Position numbers and translations under genes: made by a program. A DNA stretch of 9,357 bases from a virus (taxonomy: Duplodnaviria; Heunggongvirae; Uroviricota; Caudoviricetes), in IMG/VR virus record IMGVR_UViG_2537562195_000004, one strand, 5' to 3'. Positions 1-9,357 of the stretch are shown here, piece by piece. The notes beneath the pieces are model-generated. The model was given only the letters and a program-made list of their open reading frames with translations. It made no database searches and was not told the origin of the DNA. Within the stretch, counting starts at the first letter, position 1. Every line of letters starts with the position of its first letter.

Positions 1-1242
1 ATGGCGAGAAAAACACCCCCATTAACCACAGTACAGATCAAAGCAGCCAGACCAGCAGAAAAGGAATACACCCTACAGGACGGCGGAGGGCTTTTTCTCC
101 TGATCAAACCGTCCGGATCAAAACTCTGGAGATTTTCCTACTACCGACCATCGGACAAAAAAAGAATATTGCTGAGTTTTGGATCGCTTGATGATGTTTC
201 CCTGGCTGATGCCAGAAAACGCCGTAGCGAGTACAGGGCGTTAATTCGTGCCGGAACTGACCCGCAGGACCACGAGAGGCAAAAAAGAGAGACAGAGGCC
301 CGAAGACAAGGGAACACGTTCGAAAATGTGGCAACAGCATGGTACCAGGTGAAAATCAGCCAGAATCTGGCCCCCAATACGATTAAAGACATCTGGCGAT
401 CGCTGGAAAAATATGTATTCCCGTTCATCGGCAACACGCCAATAGACACCCTGACCGCTCGCAGGTTCGTTGAGGTGCTTACCCCCATCAAGGAACGTGG
501 CAACCTGGAAACGCTCAAGCGAGTTTTACAGCGTATAAATGAGGTAATGGATTACGCCGCCAATAGTGGGATGATTGATGCCAATCCGGCTATGAATGTG
601 CGTAAGGCGTTCCCCTCCCCTGTAAAAAAACATATGCCAACAATCCGCCCCGAACAGCTGCCGGAGCTTATGCAGGCTTTATCAGTATCGGCAACAGAAC
701 GGCAGACCAGATTACTGATTGAATGGCAGTTACTGACCGTAACCCGTCCCGTTGAAGCATCGTCGGCACGCTGGGAAGAAATCGACATGGAAGCGCAACG
801 CTGGACCATACCCGCCGGACGCATGAAGATGCGCCGCGACCACGTTATCCCGCTTTGTGACCAGGCTATGGCAGTGCTGGAGGCTATGAAACCAATCAGC
901 CACCACCGCGATTATGTTTTCCCGAGTCTGAAAGACCCACAGCAGCCGATGAACAGCCAGACCGCTAACGCAGCATTACGACGCATGGGATTCGCTGGCG
1001 TGCTGGTGTCTCATGGATTACGCGCCATATTCAGCACAGCAGCGAACGAAGAAGGCTTTGAGCCGGACGTAATAGAGGCCGCACTTGCCCACGTCGACAC
1101 CAACGAAGTCAGACGGGCATACAACCGGAGCAACTACATAGAAAAACGCATCGTGCTTATGCGCTGGTGGGGCGAATTTGTCGAGGCTGCGGCGACGGGC
1201 GTAACCCTCGCCAGTGGTAAAAGGGGTATCCGAGCCGTTTAG
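1..1242 (+). CDS. int: Tyrosine recombinase, P4-type integrase family (IntA/IntS-like)
   Basis: 413-aa ORF. N-terminus MARKTPPLT..IKAA.P..KEY.L.DGGGL.LLIK.SGSKLWRFSYY is the characteristic P4-type integrase N-terminal arm-binding domain. C-terminal region has HGLR and RAYNRSNY, consistent with the catalytic His/Arg and Tyr. Recognised from memory of the family. Confidence 0.93.
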   Translation: MARKTPPLTTVQIKAARPAEKEYTLQDGGGLFLLIKPSGSKLWRFSYYRPSDKKRILLSFGSLDDVSLADARKRRSEYRALIRAGTDPQDHERQKRETEARRQGNTFENVATAWYQVKISQNLAPNTIKDIWRSLEKYVFPFIGNTPIDTLTARRFVEVLTPIKERGNLETLKRVLQRINEVMDYAANSGMIDANPAMNVRKAFPSPVKKHMPTIRPEQLPELMQALSVSATERQTRLLIEWQLLTVTRPVEASSARWEEIDMEAQRWTIPAGRMKMRRDHVIPLCDQAMAVLEAMKPISHHRDYVFPSLKDPQQPMNSQTANAALRRMGFAGVLVSHGLRAIFSTAANEEGFEPDVIEAALAHVDTNEVRRAYNRSNYIEKRIVLMRWWGEFVEAAATGVTLASGKRGIRAV

Positions 1243-1738: not shown

Positions 1739-1945
1739 ATGGAAGCAATCAAAAAAGTCATCTTTCGCCAGGAAGTAAAAAAACTTATCCACATTAAGGC
1801 AGACAGCACGCTGCAAAGCATGATCAACGCCGGAGAATTCCCGCAGGGTTTTCGTGTCGGTTTGCGCCGTCGCGGATGGTATGAGGAAGACGTAATCGCA
1901 TGGATGAAAGAACGAGAACAAGAAGCGCGCGGAACGACCGCTTAA
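1739..1945 (+). CDS. alpA: AlpA-family phage regulatory protein (Vis/excisionase-like helix-turn-helix)
   Basis: 68 aa; pattern ..L..MI.AGEFP.G...G.R.RGW.E.DV..WM is typical of AlpA/Vis proteins next to P4-type integrases. GAGG RBS at 1726-1729. Confidence 0.85.
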   Translation: MEAIKKVIFRQEVKKLIHIKADSTLQSMINAGEFPQGFRVGLRRRGWYEEDVIAWMKEREQEARGTTA

Positions 1946-2066
1946 CATATATAGGGCAAATGATGAACATAAAAAAAGCGGCCCCGAAATGGAGCCACCT
2001 TTCTGAACAATTAACCCGCTGCGCCGTATGTGTCAACAATCATAAGCTTGGGCATGATAACCGCGA

Positions 2067-2270
2067 TCAGGCTGGTGGGCAATTATCTTTCTTGTTGGGG
2101 CCGTATTGTGCTGCCATTTTCATCCGTTCAGAACGTGAATATTTTTTTAGAAACTCATCAAGGACAAAAGCGCATGGTGCGAATCTTTCTGATTCATGCT
2201 CGAGCGCCATATTTTCGTGCTCTCTGTTCGTTTTTTGCGATGGTGTATCGGTTGATTCTTTATTGGTCAT
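2067..2270 (-). CDS. Hypothetical small protein, 'MTN' paralogue C (second gene of RHH cassette 1)
   Basis: 67 aa. Paralogous to 2721-2948: both start MTN + S/T/Q-rich N-terminus and share C-terminal motif F.L(D/E)(E/D)F(L/V).KY(S/P)R. Start preceded by conserved ACAGG. Family unknown. Confidence 0.45.
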   Translation of the reverse strand: MTNKESTDTPSQKTNREHENMALEHESERFAPCAFVLDEFLKKYSRSERMKMAAQYGPNKKDNCPPA

Positions 2271-2278
2271 TGTGTGTA

Positions 2279-2322
2279 CCTGTAAAGCAATGCGCCGTAG
2301 TACCTCACGCCACGGCGCTGAT
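2279..2322. repeat. 44-bp conserved palindromic intergenic element, copy 1
   Basis: cctgtaaagcaatGCGCCGTagtacctcacgccACGGCGCtgat; 43/44 identical to 2957-3000. 7-bp inverted repeat GCGCCGT (2292-2298) / ACGGCGC (2312-2318) with 13-nt loop. The single difference (2309) is in the loop. Confidence 0.8.
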
Positions 2323-2327
2323 GTTTT

Positions 2328-2501
2328 TTATCCTTTGGGTTCAATACCGCGTTGCTGTAATTCTTTTCGGAGTACTCGCTTGATCCAGGTGGCTAAAGAA
2401 GTGTCACCGTCTGCTTTCGCTGCCTCTTCAAGTTGTGCTCTGAATTCTTCTGGTAGCCGCATTTGGTATGGAGGCGATCGCTTTTCCAATGGTGTTGACA
2501 T
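2328..2501 (-). CDS. Ribbon-helix-helix (Arc/Mnt/MetJ-type) DNA-binding protein; not in the supplied ORF track
   Basis: Hand translation of the minus strand: MSTPLEKRSPPYQMRLPEEFRAQLEEAAKADGDTSLATWIKRVLRKELQQRGIEPKG (57 aa, stop at 2328-2330). Fits the Arc/Mnt beta-strand/helix/helix pattern (P.x.hRhP.E.....A...G.S.N..I...L). AGGG RBS; start abuts palindromic operators. Confidence 0.7.
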   Translation of the reverse strand: MSTPLEKRSPPYQMRLPEEFRAQLEEAAKADGDTSLATWIKRVLRKELQQRGIEPKG

Positions 2502-2543
2502 GGTAATTACCCTTAATTACTATAGTTACATGGTAATTACCAT
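2495..2543 (+). promoter_or_regulatory. Divergent promoter/operator region I: sigma70-like promoter overlaid by two GGTAATTACC palindromes
   Basis: -35 TTGACA (2495-2500), 17-bp spacer, -10 TACTAT (2518-2523). Perfect palindromes GGTAATTACC at 2502-2511 and 2532-2541 (second extends to ATGGTAATTACCAT, 2530-2543); centres 30 bp apart. A possible minus-strand -10 TATAGT for the RHH gene lies in the same region. Confidence 0.5.
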
Positions 2544-2568
2544 TGTACTTACCGTTATACAAAAAACA

Positions 2569-2680
2569 ACGCCCCGCAGTGGTGGCTCACATATGGGGCG
2601 TCTAACCAAACCATTAATTGAGGTAACGATTATGGCTATAAAAGAGCATAGCTTACTCTTTATACACACACAAACGCCCC
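2569..2680 (+). repeat. Leader module copy 1 (orphan): hairpin, RBS, ATG and ~16 codons homologous to the Icd-like gene leader
   Basis: Hairpin cgcccc (2570-2575) / ggggcg (2595-2600), then tctaaccaa, GAGG, ATG at 2632 encoding MAIKEHSLLFIHTQTP (compare MVAVNHIPHLVHTQTA at 3378). Similarity then ends. On the minus strand the hairpin is followed by TTGTTTTTT, so it is terminator-like for minus-strand transcription. Confidence 0.6.
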
Positions 2681-2681
2681 G

Positions 2682-2701
2682 GAAACGGAATAATCCGTTT
2701 C
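2682..2701 (-). other. Perfect 8-bp hairpin just 3' of the upstream MTN gene (putative RNA 3'-end structure)
   Basis: GAAACGGA-ataa-TCCGTTTC, 20 nt downstream of the stop of the 2721-2948 minus-strand ORF. Confidence 0.4.
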
Positions 2702-2720
2702 ATGGTTCCGTCTTGTGCAC

Positions 2721-2948
2721 TCATCCTGGCGGTCGGTTTTTGCCGGATTTAAGCCGCCGTGGGTATTTATCGACAAAATCTTCAAGGGCAAATTTTTCTG
2801 GTGGCACTAAGCGCGGCGCTGGTGGTGGTATTTTTGTTCTGGTTAGTTCTTCCTCAAGTCTGGCGCAGGCTTCTGACTGCCTTTGCCGGATGATTTCATC
2901 ATCTTGCGTTTGCGTGTCTTGTATTGGTGATAGTGTGTTGTTGGTCAT
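2721..2948 (-). CDS. Hypothetical small protein, 'MTN' paralogue B (second gene of RHH cassette 2)
   Basis: 75 aa, paralogous to 2067-2270. Preceded by conserved ACAGGG and the 44-bp element. Family unknown. Confidence 0.45.
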   Translation of the reverse strand: MTNNTLSPIQDTQTQDDEIIRQRQSEACARLEEELTRTKIPPPAPRLVPPEKFALEDFVDKYPRRLKSGKNRPPG

Positions 2949-2956
2949 GATACTGC

Positions 2957-3000
2957 CCTGTAAAGCAATGCGCCGTAGTACCTCACACCACGGCGCTGAT
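2957..3000. repeat. 44-bp conserved palindromic intergenic element, copy 2
   Basis: 43/44 identical to 2279-2322. Same position in a 57-bp spacer between an RHH gene stop and an MTN gene start. Confidence 0.8.
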
Positions 3001-3005
3001 AGTGA

Positions 3006-3185
3006 TTATTCTGATTCTTTGGCCTTGCGACGCTGGCGGCGTTTGATTTCGCCGCGCATGGCTGCGTTTATAAACTGCCCCGTGCTTTCACCTTCTTCTT
3101 TCACGTTCTCCATGCCTTCAATAATTTCATGGGCAATACGTGCAGTTACAGATTGTGATTTTGCATTCTTTGGCCCCGTTGCCAT
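3006..3185 (-). CDS. Small RHH-like DNA-binding protein (putative repressor of the Icd-like/rep operon promoter)
   Basis: Preferred start is the ATG at 3185 (MATGPKNAKSQSVTARIAHEIIEGMENVKEEGESTGQFINAAMRGEIKRRQRRKAKESE), preceded by GAGGGG at 6-nt spacing; the track start at 3224 lacks an RBS and would place operator copy O1 in coding sequence. Pattern VTARIAHEII....GES.GQFINAAM resembles Arc/Mnt. Fold assignment is by eye. Confidence 0.5.
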   Translation of the reverse strand: MATGPKNAKSQSVTARIAHEIIEGMENVKEEGESTGQFINAAMRGEIKRRQRRKAKESE

Positions 3186-3206
3186 GTTTAACCCCTCATG
3201 TTTTTG

Positions 3207-3287
3207 GTGTAAGACAATATACACGAAAAAAAAATATTTTGAAGGGTTGACGTGTAAGACACCGTTATTTTACATTGTGTCTTACAC
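3207..3287 (+). promoter_or_regulatory. Divergent promoter/operator region II: three copies of GTGTAAGACA(C) around a + strand promoter
   Basis: GTGTAAGACA at 3207-3216, GTGTAAGACAC at 3252-3262, inverted GTGTCTTACAC at 3277-3287 (the last two form an 11-bp perfect inverted repeat with 14-bp spacer). -35 TTGACG (3247-3252), 17-18 bp spacer, -10 TTACAT/TACATT (3270-3276). Same architecture as region I with different operator sequence. Confidence 0.5.
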
Positions 3288-3318
3288 CTTGTTGATGCAA
3301 GGTACAGAAAAGACGAAA

Positions 3319-3431
3319 CCCCGCAGTGCTGGAACACATACGGGGCTTCTAACCAACAACGTAAACGAGGAGCCGTTATGGTTGCCGTAAATCATATACC
3401 ACACCTTGTACACACACAAACTGCCTTTGTG
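3319..3431 (+). repeat. Leader module copy 2 (functional copy, upstream of and overlapping the Icd-like gene start)
   Basis: Hairpin ccccg (3319-3323) / cgggg (3341-3345), tctaaccaa, GAGGAG RBS, ATG at 3378. 33/39 identical to copy 1 over the hairpin core by manual alignment. On the minus strand the hairpin is followed by a U-rich stretch. Confidence 0.6.
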
Positions 3432-3578
3432 TGGCGTTTTCTGGCACTGAGTGCCGGAGAATCTCAAATCATCCACGTAACCGCCTGGACGGAACGCGAA
3501 GCGCGTAGCCGTTGCCCGTCCGGTTGTGTTGCTGTATTCGCTGCCCGTATTCGTCAGGGGGAAACCTATGCACAATAA
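3378..3578 (+). CDS. Small protein, probably Icd-like (host cell division inhibitor-like, as in P1 icd / P4 kil region)
   Basis: 66 aa; pattern F.WRF.A......II.V.A.TEREAR...P.G.V.VFAARI matches my recollection of Icd-like proteins annotated in P4-like prophages. Strong RBS. Family assignment from memory, not a search. Confidence 0.5.
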   Translation: MVAVNHIPHLVHTQTAFVWRFLALSAGESQIIHVTAWTEREARSRCPSGCVAVFAARIRQGETYAQ

Positions 3579-3798
3579 AACCACACCGGACGCAGCAGAA
3601 GAAGCAATGCAAATACTGATACGTGCGCTCGTTGATGTTACCCACATGGTGGAGATTATGGAGAGAAAATCACAGTCGGAGCACGACAAAAGAAAACTTA
3701 AAACAATAAAAATAATTGCCAAAAACTCGCTGATAAAAGTTACAGACATCCTTAATGAGGACATTAAAAGAATAAGGGAGAAAATTTGTGATGCATAA
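3568..3798 (+). CDS. Hypothetical small basic helical protein X1 (in AT-rich insert)
   Basis: ATG at 3568 with AGGGGGA RBS; overlaps the Icd-like stop by 11 nt. 76 aa, K/R-rich. Local GC about 33% against about 50-60% in flanks. No family recognised. Confidence 0.5.
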   Translation: MHNKTTPDAAEEAMQILIRALVDVTHMVEIMERKSQSEHDKRKLKTIKIIAKNSLIKVTDILNEDIKRIREKICDA

Positions 3799-4018
3799 AA
3801 TCCCTTTTGAAGTATTAATCCACTCTGAAAACGCATTAATTAAAGCACGCGAAATGAATGCGTTGTTAATTAAATTAATTGAAGTGCCGGAAGGTGGTGA
3901 GGAATCAGGTGTATTAATGTTTGCAGCCATTCAGACATTACTATCGCCTGTTATTGATGAACTGGATAAGGCAATGGCAATTCACGAAAATAATAACGCG
4001 CCCCACACCGGAGAATAA
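3791..4018 (+). CDS. Hypothetical small acidic helical protein X2 (in AT-rich insert)
   Basis: ATG at 3791 with AAGGGAG RBS; overlaps X1 stop by 8 nt (translational coupling). 75 aa, E/D-rich. No family recognised. Confidence 0.5.
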   Translation: MHKIPFEVLIHSENALIKAREMNALLIKLIEVPEGGEESGVLMFAAIQTLLSPVIDELDKAMAIHENNNAPHTGE

Positions 4019-4023
4019 AAATA

Positions 4024-4323
4024 ATGAAACTTAAATATTCTGGCTTAACTGCCAGTGGCAACACTCACCCTAAATTTACGCGCGGTGATATTTACCGCGA
4101 CCAGTACGGCGGCACGGTAATGATTAAGGGCGTGGCGGGACGGTGCGTAACTTACCGCCGTGAAGGTTACGAATATGATTGCGTGATGCCTGTTTATCAG
4201 TTCCGGCGTGATTTTTCTCTGGTACAGACCGCGCCGCATAACGTGCCCACCAGCAACGCCAGGGCACGGGCAAACATCCAGAAGCTGAAAACCATGATTA
4301 ACGGATTCAGGGGTAAAAAATGA
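4024..4323 (+). CDS. Hypothetical protein X3
   Basis: 99 aa; GGAG upstream. Stop TGA overlaps the rep ATG (ATGA at 4320-4323). No family recognised. Confidence 0.5.
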   Translation: MKLKYSGLTASGNTHPKFTRGDIYRDQYGGTVMIKGVAGRCVTYRREGYEYDCVMPVYQFRRDFSLVQTAPHNVPTSNARARANIQKLKTMINGFRGKK

Positions 4324-5729
4324 AACTGGCACCGAACGTAAAACTATTACCGAAAGACAAATACACCGATGCGATTATTTTTGCGGGTATTGATGCTCAC
4401 TCATTCGCAGAGCATTACATCATTGCACAGGCAAAAAAAGCAGGAGATCCAGTCCCTCCCGTTTATCTGGGGCGTTATCAGTTAAGCGAACTGGATAACC
4501 TCCAGATTGTTGATGATGGGCGATACAGGGCGACGGTGATACGCGCCGGAAATATTGAAGAGCCGCAGCTGTTAACCATCGCCACGAAACTGGCGATCGC
4601 CGGAGTCCAGGAGGCGCGGCTACTTTCTGAAAATTTCGAATTGCTGGAGGAATGGAGCGACCAGCTTCCACGGCTTAGGGAGGCATGGGAACGCGGGGAA
4701 AGCCTGGTCATGAAAAAAATCCCCCAGCGAAAAACCACGCTACCGATGAGCGTTGGATCTACCGGATACGACACACAGCTTGATTACGTGGTAAAGGGGA
4801 TTATTCCGGCATCGTCGCTTTGCAGCATATACGGGGCGAGCGGTTCCTATAAATCATTCCTTGCCGGATCGTGGGCGTGTCACGTTTCCACGGGCCGCCA
4901 GTGGGGAGGCCGCAGGGTGGCGCATGGCGCTGTTCTCTATGTGGTTGGTGAAGGCGGTATCGGCGTTCCGCGTCGTGTAAAAGCCTGGGAGGTTGTACAC
5001 GGGGAGCAGGTGAAAAATCTGTATCTGGTAAACCGTCCGGTCTTTCCGGCTGTCCCGCTTGATGTTGATGAACTGGTTATCGCTGCCCGTCAGGTGGAGC
5101 GGGAAACGGGTAAACCTGTACGCATGATTATTCTGGATACGCTGGCGCGGTGCTTTGGTGGCAATGATGAAAATGATTCCCGTGATATGGGGGCGTTTAT
5201 CCGTGGTTGTGACGAACTGAAACGGCGCACAGGGGCCACGGTGCTGGTGGTTCACCATTCCGGCAAGGATGAGACGAAAGGCGCGCGCGGTTCCAGTGCA
5301 TTTCGTGCTTCGCTGGATGCTGAATACCGGATACGCAGAGAGGACGCAGGCAGCGAAGCGCTGGTTATCTCATGCACCAAAATGAAGGACGCGGAGGAAC
5401 TCAAAGAAGCCGCATATGACTTACGCGTGGTGGAGCTTTTTACCGACGCTGACGGGGAGTTAATTACGTCGCTGGTGGTGGTGGATAAGCCGCGCCCTCC
5501 CGTTGAACTGGAGCGCATCGAGGAGGCAGGCAACAAGACGGAAAACCATACCGCGCTATGGGGGTGCATACGTTCACGCACACAGCACGGCGACAAGTGC
5601 ACGATCCCGCTGTTACGTGACGATATGAAAAAGCTGGGGTATGACACAAAACACCTTAAACGATGGTTAGCCAAACTGGAAAAAGACGACGTGATCTACA
5701 TTGACGGTGATGATGTAGGACCACTGTAA
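4320..5729 (+). CDS. RepA-like replicative ATPase/helicase (RecA-fold, AAA_25-type) with a C-terminal putative origin-binding domain
   Basis: 469 aa. Walker A GASGSYKS, Walker B RMIILD, and VLVVHHSGKD motif typical of AAA_25/RepA-like phage and plasmid helicases. Lies immediately upstream of the iteron array. Confidence 0.8.
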   Translation: MKLAPNVKLLPKDKYTDAIIFAGIDAHSFAEHYIIAQAKKAGDPVPPVYLGRYQLSELDNLQIVDDGRYRATVIRAGNIEEPQLLTIATKLAIAGVQEARLLSENFELLEEWSDQLPRLREAWERGESLVMKKIPQRKTTLPMSVGSTGYDTQLDYVVKGIIPASSLCSIYGASGSYKSFLAGSWACHVSTGRQWGGRRVAHGAVLYVVGEGGIGVPRRVKAWEVVHGEQVKNLYLVNRPVFPAVPLDVDELVIAARQVERETGKPVRMIILDTLARCFGGNDENDSRDMGAFIRGCDELKRRTGATVLVVHHSGKDETKGARGSSAFRASLDAEYRIRREDAGSEALVISCTKMKDAEELKEAAYDLRVVELFTDADGELITSLVVVDKPRPPVELERIEEAGNKTENHTALWGCIRSRTQHGDKCTIPLLRDDMKKLGYDTKHLKRWLAKLEKDDVIYIDGDDVGPL

Positions 5730-5730
5730 A

Positions 5731-5928
5731 AAGTGGGCATTAAAAGTGGGAAAGGTGGGAGATTTAACGTAATTTTAACAAAATTACCCACTTTCCCACG
5801 TGTATATATCCCAAAAAGTGGGCACTAAAAAAATACCTATGAAACAAGATGATATAAATCCCAAATTTCCCACGTTGGACGAAGTGGGAAAACGTAAAAA
5901 GTGGGCGAAAAAAGTGGGTAGAGGTGGG
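5731..5928. repeat. Iteron array, putative origin of replication
   Basis: Eight direct copies of AAGTGGG/AGGTGGG (starting 5731, 5744, 5753, 5816, 5882, 5899, 5912, 5922) plus inverted copies (CCCACTTT 5787-5794, CCCAC 5795-5799 and 5869-5873), interspersed with AT-rich segments (5761-5786, 5823-5865). Begins 2 nt after the rep stop. Confidence 0.65.
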
Positions 5929-5931
5929 CAA

Positions 5932-6189
5932 ATGACTCAAAAACACAGAGACAGAACAGAGCCAAAATATAAAGCGTTAGACATGACAGAGCACGCCTTA
6001 AAGGTGGCAATCAGAACGATAGACCGCCACGCGGGGGAAGGATACGCGAAAGAACATCCCGACCTGATAAGCGCATTCATGACCACAGCAGCGGCAAACT
6101 TTGCCACGCTGACAGAACGTGAGATTGCCGAAGCGGAACAGGTAACAACCATCAACGTAAAAACCGGAGAGTCAGGCGATGATACATGA
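5932..6189 (+). CDS. Hypothetical protein downstream of the origin
   Basis: Preferred start ATG 5932 with GAGGTGGG RBS (the last iteron). The longer track ORF from 5800 translates the iterons (KKWAKKVGRGG) and is probably not real. Overlaps the PerC-like gene start by 11 nt. Confidence 0.45.
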   Translation: MTQKHRDRTEPKYKALDMTEHALKVAIRTIDRHAGEGYAKEHPDLISAFMTTAAANFATLTEREIAEAEQVTTINVKTGESGDDT

Positions 6190-6451
6190 CCGCATAGCGG
6201 AGGAACTCGAGGCGAAAGGATTTTACCGGAGGGCGGCGGCGCGATGGGGTGAAGTCATGCAGCTGGTGGAGACAGACAAGGAACGGCATCAGGTTACGAT
6301 GCGACGGCTGGAATGTTCCAGGAAAGCACAGAGGCAACCGGAGCCGCCGGATAACTTCGGAGACCTGAGAAAGGCAGTAGATCGCACTTATGCTGAAATG
6401 GGTATAGATGGTGTAAGCGATGAAATATGGTGTAATTACCAGGACAGCTAA
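6179..6451 (+). CDS. PerC-family transcriptional regulator (PerC/Pch-like)
   Basis: 90 aa; N-terminal DRIAEELEAKGFYRRAAARWGEVM matches the PerC-family signature (AE.LE.KG.WRRAA.RW) as I recall it. Followed by an intrinsic terminator. Confidence 0.6.
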   Translation: MIHDRIAEELEAKGFYRRAAARWGEVMQLVETDKERHQVTMRRLECSRKAQRQPEPPDNFGDLRKAVDRTYAEMGIDGVSDEIWCNYQDS

Positions 6452-6458
6452 TCACACA

Positions 6459-6480
6459 GCCGGAGCAATCCGGCTTTTTT
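6459..6480 (+). terminator. Rho-independent terminator
   Basis: GCCGGA-gcaa-TCCGGC followed by TTTTTT (6475-6480). Confidence 0.6.
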
Positions 6481-6909
6481 GTAGGTACTCCTGGTGGGGG
6501 GGCCTGTCCACGGGGCGGAGGGGCGCGGAAAAAGGCGCATTTTTTGATTTTTATGGCACCATCACCACCACTATAAGCTATTGATATATTGAGGAATAAA
6601 AATTTTTAGTGGCGAATAAGGTTGTTTTTTGTTCATCACTGGAACGTTCCCGAAAACATTTACAAAAAAACAGGCGCAAAAAAAAGCGCCCCCGATTGCT
6701 GTTACCGGAGGCGCTTTTACACGACAAAGGAGTTTTTATCGCCAGGATGACGAGTCTTAATATTGCTTCAATAGCAAAAATGCGTCAATGGCTTTGCCTC
6801 TCTGAGAATAATCAGAAAAAACATAATCTGATTTTCAGGTAGAAAATGATTTATCTATTACTTTTATCGATCAATAATGATGCCCGTTAATCAAAACGGA
6901 GGCGGATTT

Positions 6910-7104
6910 ATGCCAGAGAACAACACCAGAAAGCCGGATAAAAGTGCCACGGTACACATAGACGCCGGAACTATGGAGAAGATCGAACGCTATCAGCAGT
7001 TCATCAAAGATAATCACCCGGGTATGCCGGTACCCACGAAAGGACAAATCACACGCAGCGCGGTTGAATACTGGTACCAGGCAACGTTAGGAGCCTGGCT
7101 ATGA
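6910..7104 (+). CDS. Small protein, possible RHH-like DNA-binding protein, translationally coupled to the protease-capsid gene
   Basis: ATG at 6910 preceded by GGAGG (6897-6901). Stop TGA overlaps the next ATG (ATGA at 7101-7104). Pattern TVHIDAGTMEKIERYQQFI...TKGQITRSAVEYWYQ is compatible with strand-helix-helix. Weak call. Confidence 0.4.
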   Translation: MPENNTRKPDKSATVHIDAGTMEKIERYQQFIKDNHPGMPVPTKGQITRSAVEYWYQATLGAWL

Positions 7105-8990
7105 AAACATGGTTTTCCATTAAGGCTATGGCAGATGTTGTCTATGTGCGTATTTATGACGAGATCGGCGGGTACGGTGTAAAAGCATCGACACTTACTG
7201 ACGAGATCAACGCGTGCGGTAATGCGTCTGAAATCCATCTTCGCATCCATTCACCTGGTGGCGACATCTTTGAAGGGCTGGCTATCTATAACGCCCTGAA
7301 AAATCATCCGGCAAAGAAAATTGTACACATTGAAGGCATGGCGGCTTCTATGGCCTCGTTTATTGCCATGTGTGGCGATCACATCGTTATGCCTGAAAAC
7401 GCGATGATGATGATACATGCCCCCCGTGGTGTTACTGCCGGAGTGTCGGGCGACGTTCGCCGCTTTGCTGACCTGATGGACAAGCTGGGCGACACGATGG
7501 CGGAAACCTACGCCGGAAGAACGGGCAGGAGCAAACAGGAGATCACCTCAATGATGGAGGCGGAAACCTGGATGGATGGCAATGAGTGTAAGGCTAACGG
7601 CTTCGCAGATGAGGTTATACCCGCGATTACAGCAATGGCCCGAATTGAATCAAAACGAATCGGAGATTTTTCAAATATGCCGGAAAAAATTAAAAGCATG
7701 ATCAGCCAGAAAACTGGCAGTGGCGAACAGGAACGACTTAACGGAATCCGTGAATTGTTTGGCACCTTCAACGGAAGATATAACGACCTGGCTATAAGTT
7801 GTCTTGCGGATTCAGAATGTAGCGTTGAGAATGCACGCGAACGCCTTTTACTCGCTATGGGTAAAGAATCAACGCCAACAAACAAAACCACCCCCGCAAA
7901 TCTTTACTACGCGTACACGGATAACGGCAATATAACCGGCGATGCCATGCGTCAGGGGCTTAATGCGCGTCTTGGTCACGAACGGGCCGAACGCGGTAAT
8001 CCTTACGCCATGATGAGCCTTTTCGATATGGCACAGGCATCATTAACCCATCGTGGTATAAGCACGGGCAGCTACAGCACACGCTCGCAGATAGTAAACG
8101 CGGCATTCACCCACAGCAGCAGCGATTTTACCGATATCCTTGCTGGTGGCGCTGAAAAATCAGTGCTTGCAGGCTGGGAGCACAGCGGCGAAACATTCCG
8201 CCAGTGGACGAAAAAAGGTTCCCTTTCAAACTTCCGGGAAGCCCGCCGCGTTGGTATGAATGGCTTCTCAACGTTAAACAAAGTGCCGGAAGGGGCAGAA
8301 TATAAATACATTACCACCAGCGATCGCGGTGAACCCATCGCGCTGGCTACTTACGGGAATATTTTCAGCATTACCCGCCAGGCGATAATCAATGATGACC
8401 TTGATCAGTTATCAACGGTGCCAATGGCTATGGGCCGTGCAGCATCAAGAACGGTGGGAAATCTGGTTAATCTGGTGCTTACAGGCAACGTAAAACTTTC
8501 TGACGGAATAGCGCTGTTTGACAAAAAACACAGCAACCTGATTGAAGCAGGACTGACAACACCGGGACTTAGTGCAGCACGTCACCTGATGCGCACACAG
8601 AAGGACAAAAATGGCGAAGTGCTGAATATTGCGCCTAAATTCCTTTTAGTTCCGGCAGCACTGGAAGATCGCGCGTTGCAGATGATTAACTCAACCGCAC
8701 CTTTCGGGGCTGATAAAAACAGCGGGATCTTTAACCCGTATCACAAGCTACTTGATATCATCGTCGATCCCCGCCTTGATGATATCAGCGAAAAACAATG
8801 GTACATGCTTTCCGCACAGGGAACAGACACAATCGAGGTGGCTTATCTTGATGGCAATGACGAGCCTTACCTTGAACAGCAGGAAGGTTTTATCGTTGAC
8901 GGCGTGGCCTGGAAAGTCCGTATTGATGCAGGTGTGGCAGCTCTGGATTATCGCGGTATGGTCAAATCAGGCGGGACAGATTCACTATGA
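7101..8990 (+). CDS. Prohead protease (ClpP-like, S14 family) fused to a large C-terminal capsid-like domain
   Basis: 629 aa. N-terminal ~190 aa has ClpP-type motifs: GMAASMAS (catalytic Ser context, compare ClpP GQAASMG) and MMIHAPRG (compare MIHQP). The ~440-aa C-terminal part is of capsid-protein size and is followed by a strong terminator; the capsid assignment is an inference (confidence about 0.55), the protease assignment is stronger. Confidence 0.8.
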   Translation: MKTWFSIKAMADVVYVRIYDEIGGYGVKASTLTDEINACGNASEIHLRIHSPGGDIFEGLAIYNALKNHPAKKIVHIEGMAASMASFIAMCGDHIVMPENAMMMIHAPRGVTAGVSGDVRRFADLMDKLGDTMAETYAGRTGRSKQEITSMMEAETWMDGNECKANGFADEVIPAITAMARIESKRIGDFSNMPEKIKSMISQKTGSGEQERLNGIRELFGTFNGRYNDLAISCLADSECSVENARERLLLAMGKESTPTNKTTPANLYYAYTDNGNITGDAMRQGLNARLGHERAERGNPYAMMSLFDMAQASLTHRGISTGSYSTRSQIVNAAFTHSSSDFTDILAGGAEKSVLAGWEHSGETFRQWTKKGSLSNFREARRVGMNGFSTLNKVPEGAEYKYITTSDRGEPIALATYGNIFSITRQAIINDDLDQLSTVPMAMGRAASRTVGNLVNLVLTGNVKLSDGIALFDKKHSNLIEAGLTTPGLSAARHLMRTQKDKNGEVLNIAPKFLLVPAALEDRALQMINSTAPFGADKNSGIFNPYHKLLDIIVDPRLDDISEKQWYMLSAQGTDTIEVAYLDGNDEPYLEQQEGFIVDGVAWKVRIDAGVAALDYRGMVKSGGTDSL

Positions 8991-8994
8991 CAAC

Positions 8995-9018
8995 AAGGCG
9001 GCACCAGCCGCCTTTTTT
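8995..9018 (+). terminator. Rho-independent terminator after the protease-capsid gene
   Basis: AAGGCGGC-acca-GCCGCCTT followed by TTTTTT (9013-9018). Confidence 0.6.
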
Positions 9019-9075
9019 GCGGGTTCTTTACAAAAAATCTGAGCTTGTTTTCTTCACCAGCGCGATGGGGGCACA

Positions 9076-9357
9076 ATGACAGAAGCCGAACTACTGGGAT
9101 TAATCCGCCGCGTTACCGGAATCAGCCAGCAGCATGACGAACAGGCCACGCAGCCGGACAGCGTGACCGCCGAAAATTATGTGCGTGTTGTTGCTGAGGT
9201 GATGCGCCGTGATGGTATCCAGCTTAATGATGTGGATATGCGCAACATACGGATCCGCGTTCTTGAAATGCTGGCCTACAATCGCCGCGTTGAACTGTAT
9301 CGGGAGAAAGATAAAATTACGTACCACTGGAAGAAGCCGGAGCGGTTACGGCGTTAA
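9076..9357 (+). CDS. Hypothetical phage protein (possibly head-completion or packaging-associated)
   Basis: 93 aa; GGGGG RBS; complete ORF ending at the window edge. Functional guess is from position after the capsid gene only. Confidence 0.45.
   Translation: MTEAELLGLIRRVTGISQQHDEQATQPDSVTAENYVRVVAEVMRRDGIQLNDVDMRNIRIRVLEMLAYNRRVELYREKDKITYHWKKPERLRR

Follow-up and report, generated by a model that had tools for sequence, protein, structure and literature searches.

Satellite P4 remodels the capsids of P2 through an external scaffold and has no capsid gene. Among Gram-negative PICIs, a capsid gene is present in 21 of the 29 reference elements (PMC10111431), and the prototype, EcCICFT073, has genes for a capsid protein (c1499) and a decoration protein (c1500) and is packaged in capsids of phage size; deletion of either c1499 or c1500 left transfer and interference by this element unchanged (PMC6092414). 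Because these deletions were silent, PICIs do not as a rule need their capsid genes in the laboratory. PICIs with a CLP_protease domain in a late gene are on record (Nielsen et al. 2023, PMC10111431), and capsid and protease are also merged in cf-PICIs of Firmicutes (bioRxiv 10.1101/2022.09.08.507074; PMC10085698). A preliminary description of the locus studied here had started from the premise that PICIs encode no capsid, which fails for Gram-negative PICIs given c1499 and the 21 of 29 reference elements.

The locus is an island of ~9.8 kb in E. coli strain 4, inserted beside tRNA-Pro between yejM and yejO. The window, by which we mean the whole stretch of 9,357 nucleotides that was analysed (IMG/VR record IMGVR_UViG_2537562195_000004), holds almost the entire island, the end of which lies ~300 bp further on. 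Att-core repeats of the form TTTAGTTATACGTTT(A/G)GTTATACG are found at L001 13917-13940 and 23646-23671, with ~9.75 kb between them, and both the repeats and the insertion site agree with the yejM-site entry in Table S1 of PMC6092414. Host genes adjoin the island on both flanks (tRNA-Pro/yejM on one side, yejO on the other). Its features, in positions of the window, are as follows.

1..1242, + strand: tyrosine integrase of the P4/CP4-57 type (Arm-DNA-bind_3, Phage_int_M and Phage_integrase; Pfam)
1739..1945, + strand: AlpA-like HTH regulator/excisionase (weak Pfam matches to Phage_AlpA/HTH_17)
2067..3224, - strand: four small genes, one of the YlcI/YnfO family (PGAP), which together form a duplicated two-gene module
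3378..3578, + strand: Icd-like host cell division inhibitor (PGAP name), first gene of the rightward operon
4024..4323, + strand: DUF4222 protein (PF13973, 2.1e-23), immediately 5' of the replication gene
4320..5729, + strand: RepA-family (AAA_25) replicative helicase (Pfam AAA_25, 2.2e-44)
5728..5913, + strand: candidate replication origin with three iterons, AAAAAGTGGGCATTAAAA, 83-85 bp apart (repeat families D2/D5)
6179..6451, + strand: PerC-family transcriptional regulator (PF06069, 3.3e-43)
6470..6640, + strand: putative cos-like packaging region, conserved core 6476-6567 (GGGTACTCCTGGTGGGG...CCACGGGGCGGAGGGGCGCGGAAAAAGGCGCATTTTT)
6877..7104, + strand: small ORF, 75 aa from 6877 (PGAP: 64 aa from 6910; phrog_4934, 5.7e-51)
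7101..7625, + strand: part 1 of the fusion protein, ClpP-like prohead protease (residues 1-175)
7626..7931, + strand: part 2, linker, scaffold-like segment and disordered stretch (AlphaFold secondary structure, pLDDT)
7932..8990 including the stop codon, + strand: part 3, HK97-fold major capsid protein (MCP) domain (residues 278-629)
8995..9018, + strand: intrinsic terminator directly behind the fusion gene, 8-bp G+C stem and U6
9076..9357, + strand: 93-aa conserved PICI chassis gene (phrog_1561, 1.5e-57), last gene of the island

Most genes after the AlpA-like regulator are co-directional, and the rightward operon spans 3378 to 9357. At the left end, the integrase (NF007246, 556 bits) is near-identical to WP_000101907 of EcCI11128, which occupies the same site. 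The AlpA-like protein, which matches Pfam AlpA at E=0.003 and PHROG excisionase/regulator families at 1e-7, is identical in EcCI11128 (WP_000387403.1), and its equivalents in sister PICIs match PF05930. We regard the leftward genes at 2067..3224 as accessory or regulatory space of the PICI; their region contains a 75-nt direct repeat (2260-2334 and 2938-3012), they received no Pfam, PADLOC or Rfam assignment, and neither PADLOC nor Pfam detected a defence system among the small accessory genes. Around the 75-nt repeats and the Icd-like gene, a search with Rfam for an RNA resembling C4/IsrK gave nothing at gathering score and one sub-threshold match at chance level. The Icd-like gene holds the same position in EcCICFT073, EcCIIHE3034 and EcCI11128, and the DUF4222 gene is kept in every PICI locus examined. 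The RepA-family helicase, which also matches phrog_2850 and primase/helicase PHROGs and in place of which sister PICIs carry a D5-type primase, is the predicted replication initiator of the island. The candidate origin lies directly 3' of the replication gene, as the PICI ori rule has it, and PerC is a common accessory gene of Gram-negative PICIs (PMC6092414). The terminal 93-aa protein is 89-91% identical to the product of the last gene of EcCICFT073 and EcCIIHE3034 and 74-78% identical to that of clade-B PICIs. Its identification as Rpp was rejected: it has no sequence match in the PDB, and RppA is 144 aa long and stands elsewhere in the gene order.

The published EcCI family (Fillol-Salom 2018) comprises elements of ~7.5-15 kb with a terminal integrase and a specific att site, and the island has all of these, together with an AlpA-type regulator, a replication protein and candidate origin of its own, a cos-like packaging region, and no tail or lysis genes. 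Annotation from tRNA-Pro to yejO contains no portal, adaptor, connector, HNH, TerS, TerL, tail or lysis genes, and no tail or lysis module follows downstream because the island ends before yejO. Given its size, its tRNA-Pro site and the lack of portal, terminase, connector, tail and lysis genes, the element is in all likelihood a Gram-negative PICI of the EcCI family, and therefore belongs neither with cf-PICIs nor with P4-like elements or prophages. Where the preliminary description spoke of a "P4/PICI-like" chassis, the PICI part is right and the P4 part is not, except for the type of integrase and the AlpA-like regulator. Its comparison with cf-PICIs fails, since the island lacks portal, adaptor/connector, HNH, TerS and TerL genes, whereas the combination to which it drew attention, a single-polypeptide protease-capsid fusion with a P4-type integrase and a PerC-like regulator in a small island, is real (NF007246, PF06069). 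The inspection of the downstream sequence that it advised found no portal, terminase, connector, tail or lysis genes and hence no full prophage. The fusion does supply two cf-PICI core components, a protease and a major capsid protein, and one might on this account take the element for a cf-PICI that steals only tails, or for a prophage; however, the flanking annotation refutes this, with host genes on both sides, a length of ~9.8 kb and no other head, tail or lysis genes, and we give the idea almost no weight. A complete or defective lambdoid prophage, which would call for tail and lysis modules, a terminase and a length of ~40 kb or larger remnants, was rejected on the same grounds.

The fusion gene (7101..8990, + strand) is an intact ORF of 1.9 kb with an ATG start, encoding a single polypeptide of 629 aa. 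The whole protein matches the curated NCBIfam family NF045540 at 890 bits, above the cutoff of 475, and phrog_133 at E=1.8e-280 in a PHROG search; the title of NF045540, [quoted passage not shown], is also the name that PGAP uses in the source genome. By these matches the gene is a predicted member of the Gifsy-2-type tripartite capsid gene family (NF045540 scaf_prot_MCP1). This type of gene is reportedly the subject of Effantin et al. 2010, Virology 402:355 (cited in PMC8538268). The family is common in lambdoid phages, is found in 38% of complete E. coli genomes, and has NF045540-type members in mEp460, cdtI, CP-1639, VT1-Sakai and long-tailed Stx2 phages, so that the fusion is not the peculiarity of the island for which it had been taken.

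Several earlier observations on the gene were nevertheless correct, namely the ClpP-type Ser/His motifs of the 629-aa protein (Pfam, NF045540), its position downstream of the replication/regulation module (after the RepA helicase and PerC genes), and the strong terminator behind it. The terminator (8995-9018) has a fold energy of -15.1 kcal/mol (z=-2.3); it was missed by a consensus terminator scan and confirmed by direct reading and folding, and in mEp460 a terminator is annotated at the equivalent place behind the fusion.

Within the protein, residues 41-173 match Pfam CLP_protease (E=3.8e-33), the protease part matches NF045542 (NCBIfam, 5.4e-60), and solved ClpP structures match it by both sequence and fold, with a target-normalised TM of ~0.8. 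Ser83 (GMAASMAS; codon 7347-7349) and His106 (MMIHAP; codon 7416-7418) are invariant in an alignment of 70 diverse fusions, and the N-terminal part is probably a ClpP-fold serine protease with these as its predicted catalytic residues. In the AlphaFold model a helical scaffold-like segment (residues ~184-255) is followed by a disordered stretch (261-275), a candidate maturation-cleavage region. Pfam Phage_capsid_4 covers residues 330-623 (E=7.8e-55), and the capsid domain matches solved MCPs weakly by sequence. Foldseek with the full-length model returned ClpP matches only, and the capsid domain was therefore modelled separately (pLDDT 92.6, pTM 0.88). The top PDB matches of this model were all HK97-fold capsids or encapsulins, at probability 1.00, among them the HK97, LME-1, D3, T1, 80alpha/SaPI1 and JBD30 capsids. 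The fold comparison proposed in the preliminary description (structure prediction and Foldseek of the PDB) thus found an HK97 fold in the C-terminal region. The capsid-sized domain of ~440 aa claimed there does contain a capsid part but is not one domain, and resolves into the scaffold-like segment, the disordered stretch and an HK97-fold domain of ~350 aa (278-629).

The copies of the fusion borne by PICIs form one clade (199 of 200 bootstraps), which is split into lineages 64% identical to each other. Their identity to phage copies is ~54%; for the protein of the window it is ~51-55%, over 99% coverage in a protein search, and a PICI copy is 55% identical to that of a co-resident helper; megablast of the gene against 50,697 phage records gave no match, the phage relatives emerging only at the protein level. 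The linker between protease and scaffold is 31 aa here and 31-37 aa in PICI-borne copies, at the short extreme of the 25-100 aa (typically ~60) of diverse fusions. Relative to E. coli phage copies, in which the linker is rich in Pro and Ala, the PICI copies have in common a deletion that makes it ~30-35 aa shorter. The gene is present in 144 complete genomes, and at least 80% of it is covered in 143 of them. In each of the 12 contexts inspected the gene lies in a PICI; nine of these islands occupy three chromosomal sites, and the other three are embedded in prophages. The same late cassette is found with different integrases at no fewer than three insertion sites, which indirectly favours the predicted helper-dependent transfer. 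Between PICI fusions dN/dS is 0.084 at dS 0.57, indicating strong purifying selection; it is low in all three parts (0.118, 0.071 and 0.073), ranges from 0.08 to 0.15 among PICI copies (dS 0.3-0.6), and is as low as between phage copies (0.10-0.18). From the coverage, the dN/dS values, the conserved catalytic residues and the separate clade, we infer that the fusion is functional in satellites.

Upstream of the fusion, the context is unlike that of a phage head module: the gene is preceded by PerC, the cos-like region and the small ORF, and not by a portal gene. The cos-like core is 84% identical over 94 nt (E=2e-21) to the region upstream of terS in phage Stx2_95, and a five-way alignment indicates homology with the pre-terS region of lambdoid phages of the fusion type. 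In Stx-type prophages the block is 84-90% identical and lies at the expected distance from the fusion gene; in strain E2863, for example, a copy of 89.7% identity lies 4.3 kb upstream of the prophage fusion gene. The segment 6470..6640 is therefore best described as a putative cos-like packaging region through which the island would exploit a lambdoid helper. Annotation and sequence comparison found no Rpp or TerS-like gene in the island, whereas clade-B PICIs add a TerS 65% identical to that of mEp460. A second copy of the cos block is absent from the source strain, where no matched resident helper is therefore evident. Elsewhere, fusion copies 91-99% identical are found in PICIs embedded in the terL of prophages that carry a fusion of their own. 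The small ORF at 6877..7104, which overlaps the start codon of the fusion gene and has 38% identity with its counterpart in clade-B fusion PICIs, is a predicted cassette-specific partner of the fusion. BLASTP detected no similarity between it and the corresponding ORF of the lambda cassette, and its assignment as a gpW/head-tail adaptor was rejected for want of BLASTP similarity to lambda-like W or mEp460/Stx adaptors.

Taken as a whole, the locus is best explained as a Gram-negative PICI with a helper-type fusion cassette that acts by the mechanism outlined here, and we put the probability of this reading at roughly 0.55. A lambdoid helper with a fusion-type head module would induce the island, leading to its excision and replication, and the helper terminase would recognise the cos copy of the island and package its concatemers. 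The island fusion protein would assemble on the portal of the helper, either by itself or together with the homologous fusion of the helper; the tethered protease would then cut off the scaffold part and the protease itself, as happens in phages, and helper proteins for head completion, decoration and tails would finish the particle. The satellite would in this way have a private supply of shell subunits, which may in addition bias capsid size or poison helper heads. That the fusion forms a shell for the satellite, for which we count SaPIbov5 Ccm and the capsid homolog of PmCI172 as precedents (PMC6893505), is a serious possibility, if one short of an even chance. Against it stand the silent deletions of c1499 and c1500, the phage-sized capsids of EcCICFT073 and the lack of a second cos copy in the source strain.

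Other roles can be drawn from the same data. The fusion might act in interference only, as a dominant-negative mimic that co-assembles with the helper fusion or processes it prematurely, so that helper heads are spoiled and the host population is protected while no satellite particles are formed. Purifying selection across all domains, protease included, fits any function at the protein level, and helper interference is characteristic of PICIs (PMC6092414, PMC6739421). Because the island lacks Rpp, which in EcCICFT073 is known to act in interference and packaging, it is plausible that some other factor interferes in its place, and the protein may have become specialised as a poison subunit, as its 55% identity to the helper copy and the linker deletion specific to PICIs could indicate. 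However, a pure poison would also ruin the heads that the satellite needs, c1499 and c1500 are not interference factors in EcCICFT073, and a complete protease-scaffold-MCP protein that is catalytically intact by its residues exceeds what a poison subunit needs; we consider this role unlikely.

The shortened, satellite-specific linker and the scaffold might instead set a smaller capsid size. In such a Ccm-like redirection the truncated linker and diverged scaffold would direct capsids of T=4 or smaller, with room for one or two island genomes but not for the ~45-kb genome of the helper. Small capsids do result from the satellite capsid homolog Ccm of SaPIbov5 (PMC6893505) and are made by PmCI172, which also encodes a capsid homolog (PMC6893505, PMC6092414), and the deletion that leaves PICI linkers at 31-37 aa instead of the typical ~60 is common to the PICI copies. 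Yet EcCICFT073 has a capsid gene and phage-sized capsids, and linker length also varies in other fusions (25-100 aa), which makes size redirection quite unlikely in our estimate. We think it improbable that the fusion is dispensable cargo, left over from capture of late genes from a helper prophage and now without a role. The absence of a phenotype on deletion of c1499, the free exchange of late cassettes on the same chassis, and the proposal that PICIs pass through cycles of late-gene capture and loss (Nielsen et al., PMC10111431) would all suit such a relic, but dN/dS values of 0.08-0.15 over dS 0.3-0.6, full-length copies in 143 of 144 genomes with the catalytic residues kept, a satellite clade old enough to include 64%-identical lineages, and a closest sequenced phage at only ~52-55% identity all argue against one.

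The only Gram-negative PICI capsid gene to have been tested, c1499 of EcCICFT073, gave no phenotype (PMC6092414). The role of PICI capsid genes may be tested more cleanly with the fusion cassette, because one gene combines protease, scaffold-like and shell functions, so that a single point mutation (Ser83Ala) or deletion is a sharp test, and because the likely helper class can be recognised by the cos site that it shares with the island, by TerS homologs and by the embedded copies. Long-tailed Stx-converting phages of STEC strains belong to this class, and in such strains the satellites could alter phage yield and the transfer of genes. For annotation, this means that a "ClpP-like prohead protease/major capsid fusion" found singly next to an integrase marks a PICI and not a prophage remnant.

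Among known systems, the tripartite capsid genes of phages have the same three-part architecture as the island fusion and are homologous to it over the full length. The phage copies, however, directly follow the portal gene in the head module, whereas the island fusion has no portal gene before it and no decoration or tail genes after it, belongs to a separate, satellite-borne clade, and is without the ~30-35 aa of Pro/Ala-rich linker of the phage copies. EcCICFT073 and the EcCI family resemble the island in size, gene order, cos-type site and the presence of a capsid gene in the late cassette (PMC6092414, PMC6739421), and several chassis gene products are near-identical (Icd-like, DUF4222, PerC and the terminal 93-aa protein). 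The island is syntenic with EcCICFT073 (located by its coordinates in Table S1 of PMC6092414), EcCI11128 and EcCIIHE3034, and the late cassette differs. That of EcCICFT073 is of the lambda type, with a 351-aa MCP (c1499), the decoration protein c1500, c1501 and RppA; the island has in its stead one fusion gene and no Rpp or TerS-like gene, and the RepA helicase replaces the primase. EcCI11128 shares with the island the yejM/tRNA-Pro site, the DUF4222 protein and a RepA-family helicase, but its late cassette consists of TerS, a small ORF and a 307-aa MCP of another family. Since EcCIIHE3034 occupies the cspD-clpS site that clade-B loci also use, it was expected to hold the fusion, and it was rejected as a carrier when a lambda-type cassette was found there. 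The helper-embedded PICIs carry the near-identical fusion but lie inside prophage terL (PMC10111431), whereas the island in the window has a chromosomal site beside tRNA-Pro and a different integrase.

More distant satellites share parts of this arrangement. The island and P4 have in common the P4-type integrase, an AlpA-like regulator, small size and helper dependence (predicted for the island), and Pfam and PHROG searches found no homologs of Sid, Psu, Delta, Epsilon/Ash or the alpha primase among the island proteins. SaPIbov5 (Ccm) and PmCI172 encode, like the island, an MCP homolog in the absence of other head genes; Ccm, however, consists of the capsid homolog and nothing more (23% identity to the helper CP) and has been shown to yield small capsids (PMC6893505), whereas the island fusion adds a protease and a scaffold-like segment. 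The cf-PICI EcCIEDL933 likewise joins a PICI int/alpA/rep chassis to a capsid protein and a maturation protease of its own (bioRxiv 10.1101/2022.09.08.507074; PMC10085698), which the island has as one polypeptide, but cf-PICIs also encode portal, head-tail adaptor/connector, HNH, TerS and TerL, none of which is found in the island, and build complete heads. These comparisons raise the tentative, and in our view doubtful, possibility that a sizeable subfamily of enterobacterial PICIs follows a third strategy, making its own shell on a stolen portal from one 1.9-kb gene that provides protease, scaffold and capsid alike. If true, this strategy would be intermediate between the remodelling of helper capsids by classical elements and the complete head module that cf-PICIs carry, with terminase (via the copied cos), head completion and tails taken from a lambdoid helper of matching head type. 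The family of the fusion gene and that of the island are both already known; new here are the PICI-specific lineage of the fusion, the purifying selection on it, its unusually short linker, the cos homology and the near-identical copies embedded in prophages.

The open reading frame at window 7101-8990 (+) runs without interruption for 629 aa, and its product contains, by Pfam, a CLP_protease domain (residues 41-173, E=3.8e-33) and a Phage_capsid_4 domain (residues 330-623, E=7.8e-55). In PHROG this fusion protein matches phrog_133 over its full length (E=1.8e-280) as well as phrog_4523, named 'major head and protease protein', and with NCBIfam NF045540, 'ClpP-like prohead protease/major capsid protein fusion protein', it reaches 890 bits where the curated cutoff is 475. 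The catalytic residues are intact: Ser83 (GMAASMAS) and His106 (MMIHAP), together with Gly53-Gly54 (SPGG), show no variation across 70 aligned diverse fusions. Modelled in full with AlphaFold2 (mean pLDDT 87), the protein divides into four parts:

Residues 1-175: ClpP-like domain, confidently modelled
Residues ~184-255: all-helical segment
Residues 261-275: disordered stretch
Remainder: C-terminal domain with a long helix at 435-461

ClpP structures were the sole matches of the full-length model (TM ~0.8, target-normalised; rmsd ~2 Å). When residues 276-629 were modelled separately (pLDDT 92.6, pTM 0.88), the best PDB matches, at probability 1.00, were all HK97-fold shell proteins; matches of this portion comprise HK97, LME-1, phiXacJX1, D3, T1, the SaPI1/80alpha capsid, the JBD30 procapsid and encapsulins. 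Thus the capsid-sized C-terminal domain of ~440 aa proposed in the preliminary description does hold an HK97-fold capsid domain, but one of ~350 aa, the remainder being a scaffold-like segment. [quoted passage not shown] 2010) has the same tripartite layout. A GGAG lies 11 nt upstream of the codon for the conserved Met193 (…GDFSNMPE…; window 7662-7679, residues 188-193), and a Met inside the linker is also found in many fusions of other lineages; by analogy with lambda C/Nu3, an internal start at Met193 could conceivably yield a scaffold-capsid product devoid of the protease. The hairpin 3' of the gene (window 8995-9018; 8-bp G+C stem followed by U6, -15.1 kcal/mol) is a credible intrinsic terminator, and a terminator is annotated at the equivalent place in phage mEp460.

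Eighty phage records matched at least 80% of the fusion protein in a protein search, the best of them being long-tailed Stx phages, CP-1639, VT1-Sakai, mEp460 and cdtI (99% coverage, ~51% identity), in which the fusion adjoins the portal gene. The gene order in both mEp460 and Stx2_95 is TerS, TerL, a 70-aa adaptor, portal, fusion, decoration protein and tail genes, with no second capsid gene beside the fusion. Phage-type fusions occur in 2,070 of 5,426 complete E. coli genomes, and 5,682 proteins match at E<=1e-30 among 1.84 billion cluster representatives, the best 150 of these being nearly all fusions of 620-795 aa. Judged by this wide occurrence, the protease-capsid architecture is therefore common, and it is already curated.

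The window matches E. coli strain 4 (NZ_CP045209.1 3170244-3179600) at 100% identity, and the order there is yejM, tRNA-Pro, island, yejO, narP; its limits are the start codon of the integrase gene and the stop codon of the final island gene, and ~300 bp of the island lie beyond. Annotation of the island and its flanks revealed no portal, terminase, connector, tail or lysis gene, the fusion being the only virion gene. The element is therefore neither a full prophage nor a cf-PICI, and the satellite assignment made earlier holds. Repeats of TTAGTTATACG just inside both ends, which give an island size of ~9.75 kb, agree with the published att core of yejM-site PICIs. That core is a TTAGTTATACG repeat ~135 bp downstream of tRNA-Pro, and the PICIs at this site are EcCIATCC25922, EcCIED1a.1, EcCI11128, EcCI11368.1, SdCI1012 and SbCISb277 (Table S1, PMC6092414). 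A 9-nt match, CTCTCGTGC, between the tRNA-Pro 3' end (13766-13774 of L001, the locus with flanks in strain 4) and L001 23733-23741, ~70 bp past the right att-core repeat, may reflect chance or a remnant of an older boundary. The flanking autotransporter gene yejO (L001 23845-26436) is a pseudogene with an internal stop in the source strain and is a pseudogene in O111:H- strain 11128 too. Two further features lie 3-163 bp past the right end of the window, the first of them directly after the last island gene:

L001 23360-23420: five GTGACA repeats
L001 23501-23520: perfect 20-bp palindrome, GATATGGGGATCCCCATATC

These stretches are kept in other PICIs (92% identity in locus L010, 82% to the right end of EcCICFT073) and could represent a second cos-type site or binding sites for integrase/excisionase or a regulator.

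The window's gene, at ≥80% nucleotide identity, is present in 144 of the 5,426 complete genomes, many of them STEC strains, with at least 80% of its length covered in 143. The single other copy (hit H85, NZ_AP045176.1 2438758-2439791) is annotated in separate pieces, 'ATP-dependent Clp protease proteolytic subunit' and 'phage major capsid protein'; this split would fit an insertion like that at the helper-embedded PICI target site C:CLP_protease:110 of Nielsen et al. (PMC10111431). A second PICI clade (clade B; 637-638 aa, ~63% identical to the window's fusion, which belongs to clade A) is more frequent still. All 12 loci inspected had a PICI context: three were embedded in prophages, and nine lay in the chromosome at yejM/tRNA-Pro, at cspD-clpS or close to rpoD. 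Neighbour-joining analysis of 24 fusions united the two PICI clades in 199 of 200 bootstrap replicates, with E. coli lambdoid-phage copies as sister, and we found no sequenced phage copy closer than ~52-55% identity to a PICI fusion. The gene is under purifying selection: dN/dS is 0.084 at dS=0.57 for the window copy compared with one 91% identical (protease 0.118, middle 0.071, capsid 0.073), 0.154 between clade-B copies and 0.10-0.18 between phage copies. A Pro/Ala-rich linker of ~30-35 residues after the protease domain is present in E. coli phage copies and absent from both PICI clades; the linker segment spans 25-100 residues, typically ~60, in the 70 diverse fusions, 31 in clade A and 36-37 in clade B. 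From distribution, context, phylogeny, selection and linker we therefore conclude that the PICI fusion appears to be a functional, long-resident satellite lineage and not recent debris. This lineage, its selection signature and its shortened linker are an incremental addition to what is known.

A phage-like cos region lies in the non-coding interval that separates PerC from the fusion operon. Over 94 nt, window 6476-6567 shares 84% identity (E=2e-21) with a stretch of Stx2_95 just upstream of terS, and its core (CCACGGGGCGG.AG.GGCGCGG) resembles lambda cosN. The block is also kept in clade-B and embedded PICIs, and 2,264 of 5,426 genomes contain it; an 89.7%-identical copy in strain E2863 lies 4.3 kb upstream of the prophage fusion gene, the spacing that would be expected for cos, terS, terL, adaptor, portal and fusion. 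Most clade-B PICIs carry, 3' of the fusion, a DUF1441 protein 65% identical to mEp460 TerS. O157:H7 strain Z1835 has a lambdoid prophage whose terL is cleanly interrupted by a PICI bearing a 98.7%-identical copy of the window's gene, and the prophage's own fusion gene adjoins its portal gene; three further loci have the same arrangement with a 91%-identical copy:

L020 (NZ_CP062700.1 1788701-1809590) and L016-L018: helper-embedded PICIs, fusion 91-99% identical, terL split

Embedded and host prophage fusions are 55% identical, ~4-6 kb apart and in the same orientation. The cos/TerS match and the embedded copies, likewise an incremental advance, link PICI fusions to phages with fusion-type heads. 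We found no second copy of the cos-like block in strain 4, and its island therefore probably awaits an incoming helper.

These observations raise the possibility that a lambdoid helper with a fusion-type head would induce the island, that the helper terminase would package it via the copied cos site, and that the island's fusion protein would assemble on the helper portal, either by itself or together with the helper's protein, and undergo self-processing before the helper completes the particle. We give this shell-forming role a tentative probability of about 0.4. The main counter-evidence is experimental: in EcCICFT073, deletion of c1499 or c1500 left transfer and interference unchanged, with the DNA in phage-sized heads (PMC6092414). 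The same lack of effect favours the view that the fusion is dispensable cargo, which, given a lineage that appears functional and long resident, we consider improbable. An island fusion acting purely in interference is unlikely, though the likeliest of the other readings, and Ccm-like redirection of head size by the fusion somewhat less likely again. Our literature search found no paper testing a fusion-type PICI cassette, and such a PICI offers a clean system in which to study the role of PICI capsid genes by experiment.

Published work already describes such islands in general terms: 21 of 29 reference Gram-negative PICIs carry a capsid gene, a late gene with a CLP_protease domain occurs in some PICIs (PMC10111431), and SatelliteFinder counts 'Capsid morphogenesis' among its five PICI core components (PMC10085698). 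The combination of P4-type integrase, PerC and capsid gene that had been singled out as odd is therefore the standard PICI chassis; the single-polypeptide fusion itself was correctly recognized, and its interpretation is partly supported. The element belongs to the Gram-negative PICI family already published, with a late-cassette variant from a known phage gene family. Three iterons (AAAAAGTGGGCATTAAAA; window 5728-5913, 83-85 bp apart) directly follow the RepA helicase gene, where PICI replication origins are reported, and form a candidate origin; with these, the helicase and an integrase, the island is autonomous for integration and replication. Within 2067-3224 (minus strand), a module of two small leftward ORFs is duplicated in tandem (67+57 aa and 75+72 aa), as marked by a 75-nt direct repeat (window 2260-2334 and 2938-3012) with 81% identity and a spacing of 678 bp; one ORF is of the YlcI/YnfO family and another has a weak Arc-like match. 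One or two pairs of this kind are present in EcCICFT073 and EcCI11128. The mechanical 496-aa ORF overlapping this module (1900-3390, +) is not a gene.

The prototype, EcCICFT073, shares with the island the succession of int, HTH, YlcI/YnfO, Icd-like, DUF4222, replication gene, PerC, small ORF, late cassette and 93-aa gene, the last 89-91% identical between the window and EcCICFT073 or EcCIIHE3034. Its late cassette differs, consisting of the 351-aa lambda-type capsid protein c1499, decoration protein c1500, c1501 and RppA. c1501 (137 aa, 10584-10997 of the EcCICFT073 locus L004) weakly matches (1e-8) the C-terminal part of head maturation protease family phrog_53, the region equivalent to the lambda C/Nu3 scaffold; a scaffold-like piece may therefore accompany the capsid and decoration genes in the lambda-type cassette as well. 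EcCIIHE3034 has the same lambda-type cassette at cspD-clpS, a site used by fusion-bearing PICIs too. EcCI11128 resembles the island in its site, a near-identical integrase, an identical AlpA-like protein, the same DUF4222 protein and a RepA-family helicase, whereas its late cassette comprises TerS, a small ORF and a 307-aa capsid protein. What these comparisons add, again incrementally, is a three-way modularity of cassettes on one chassis.
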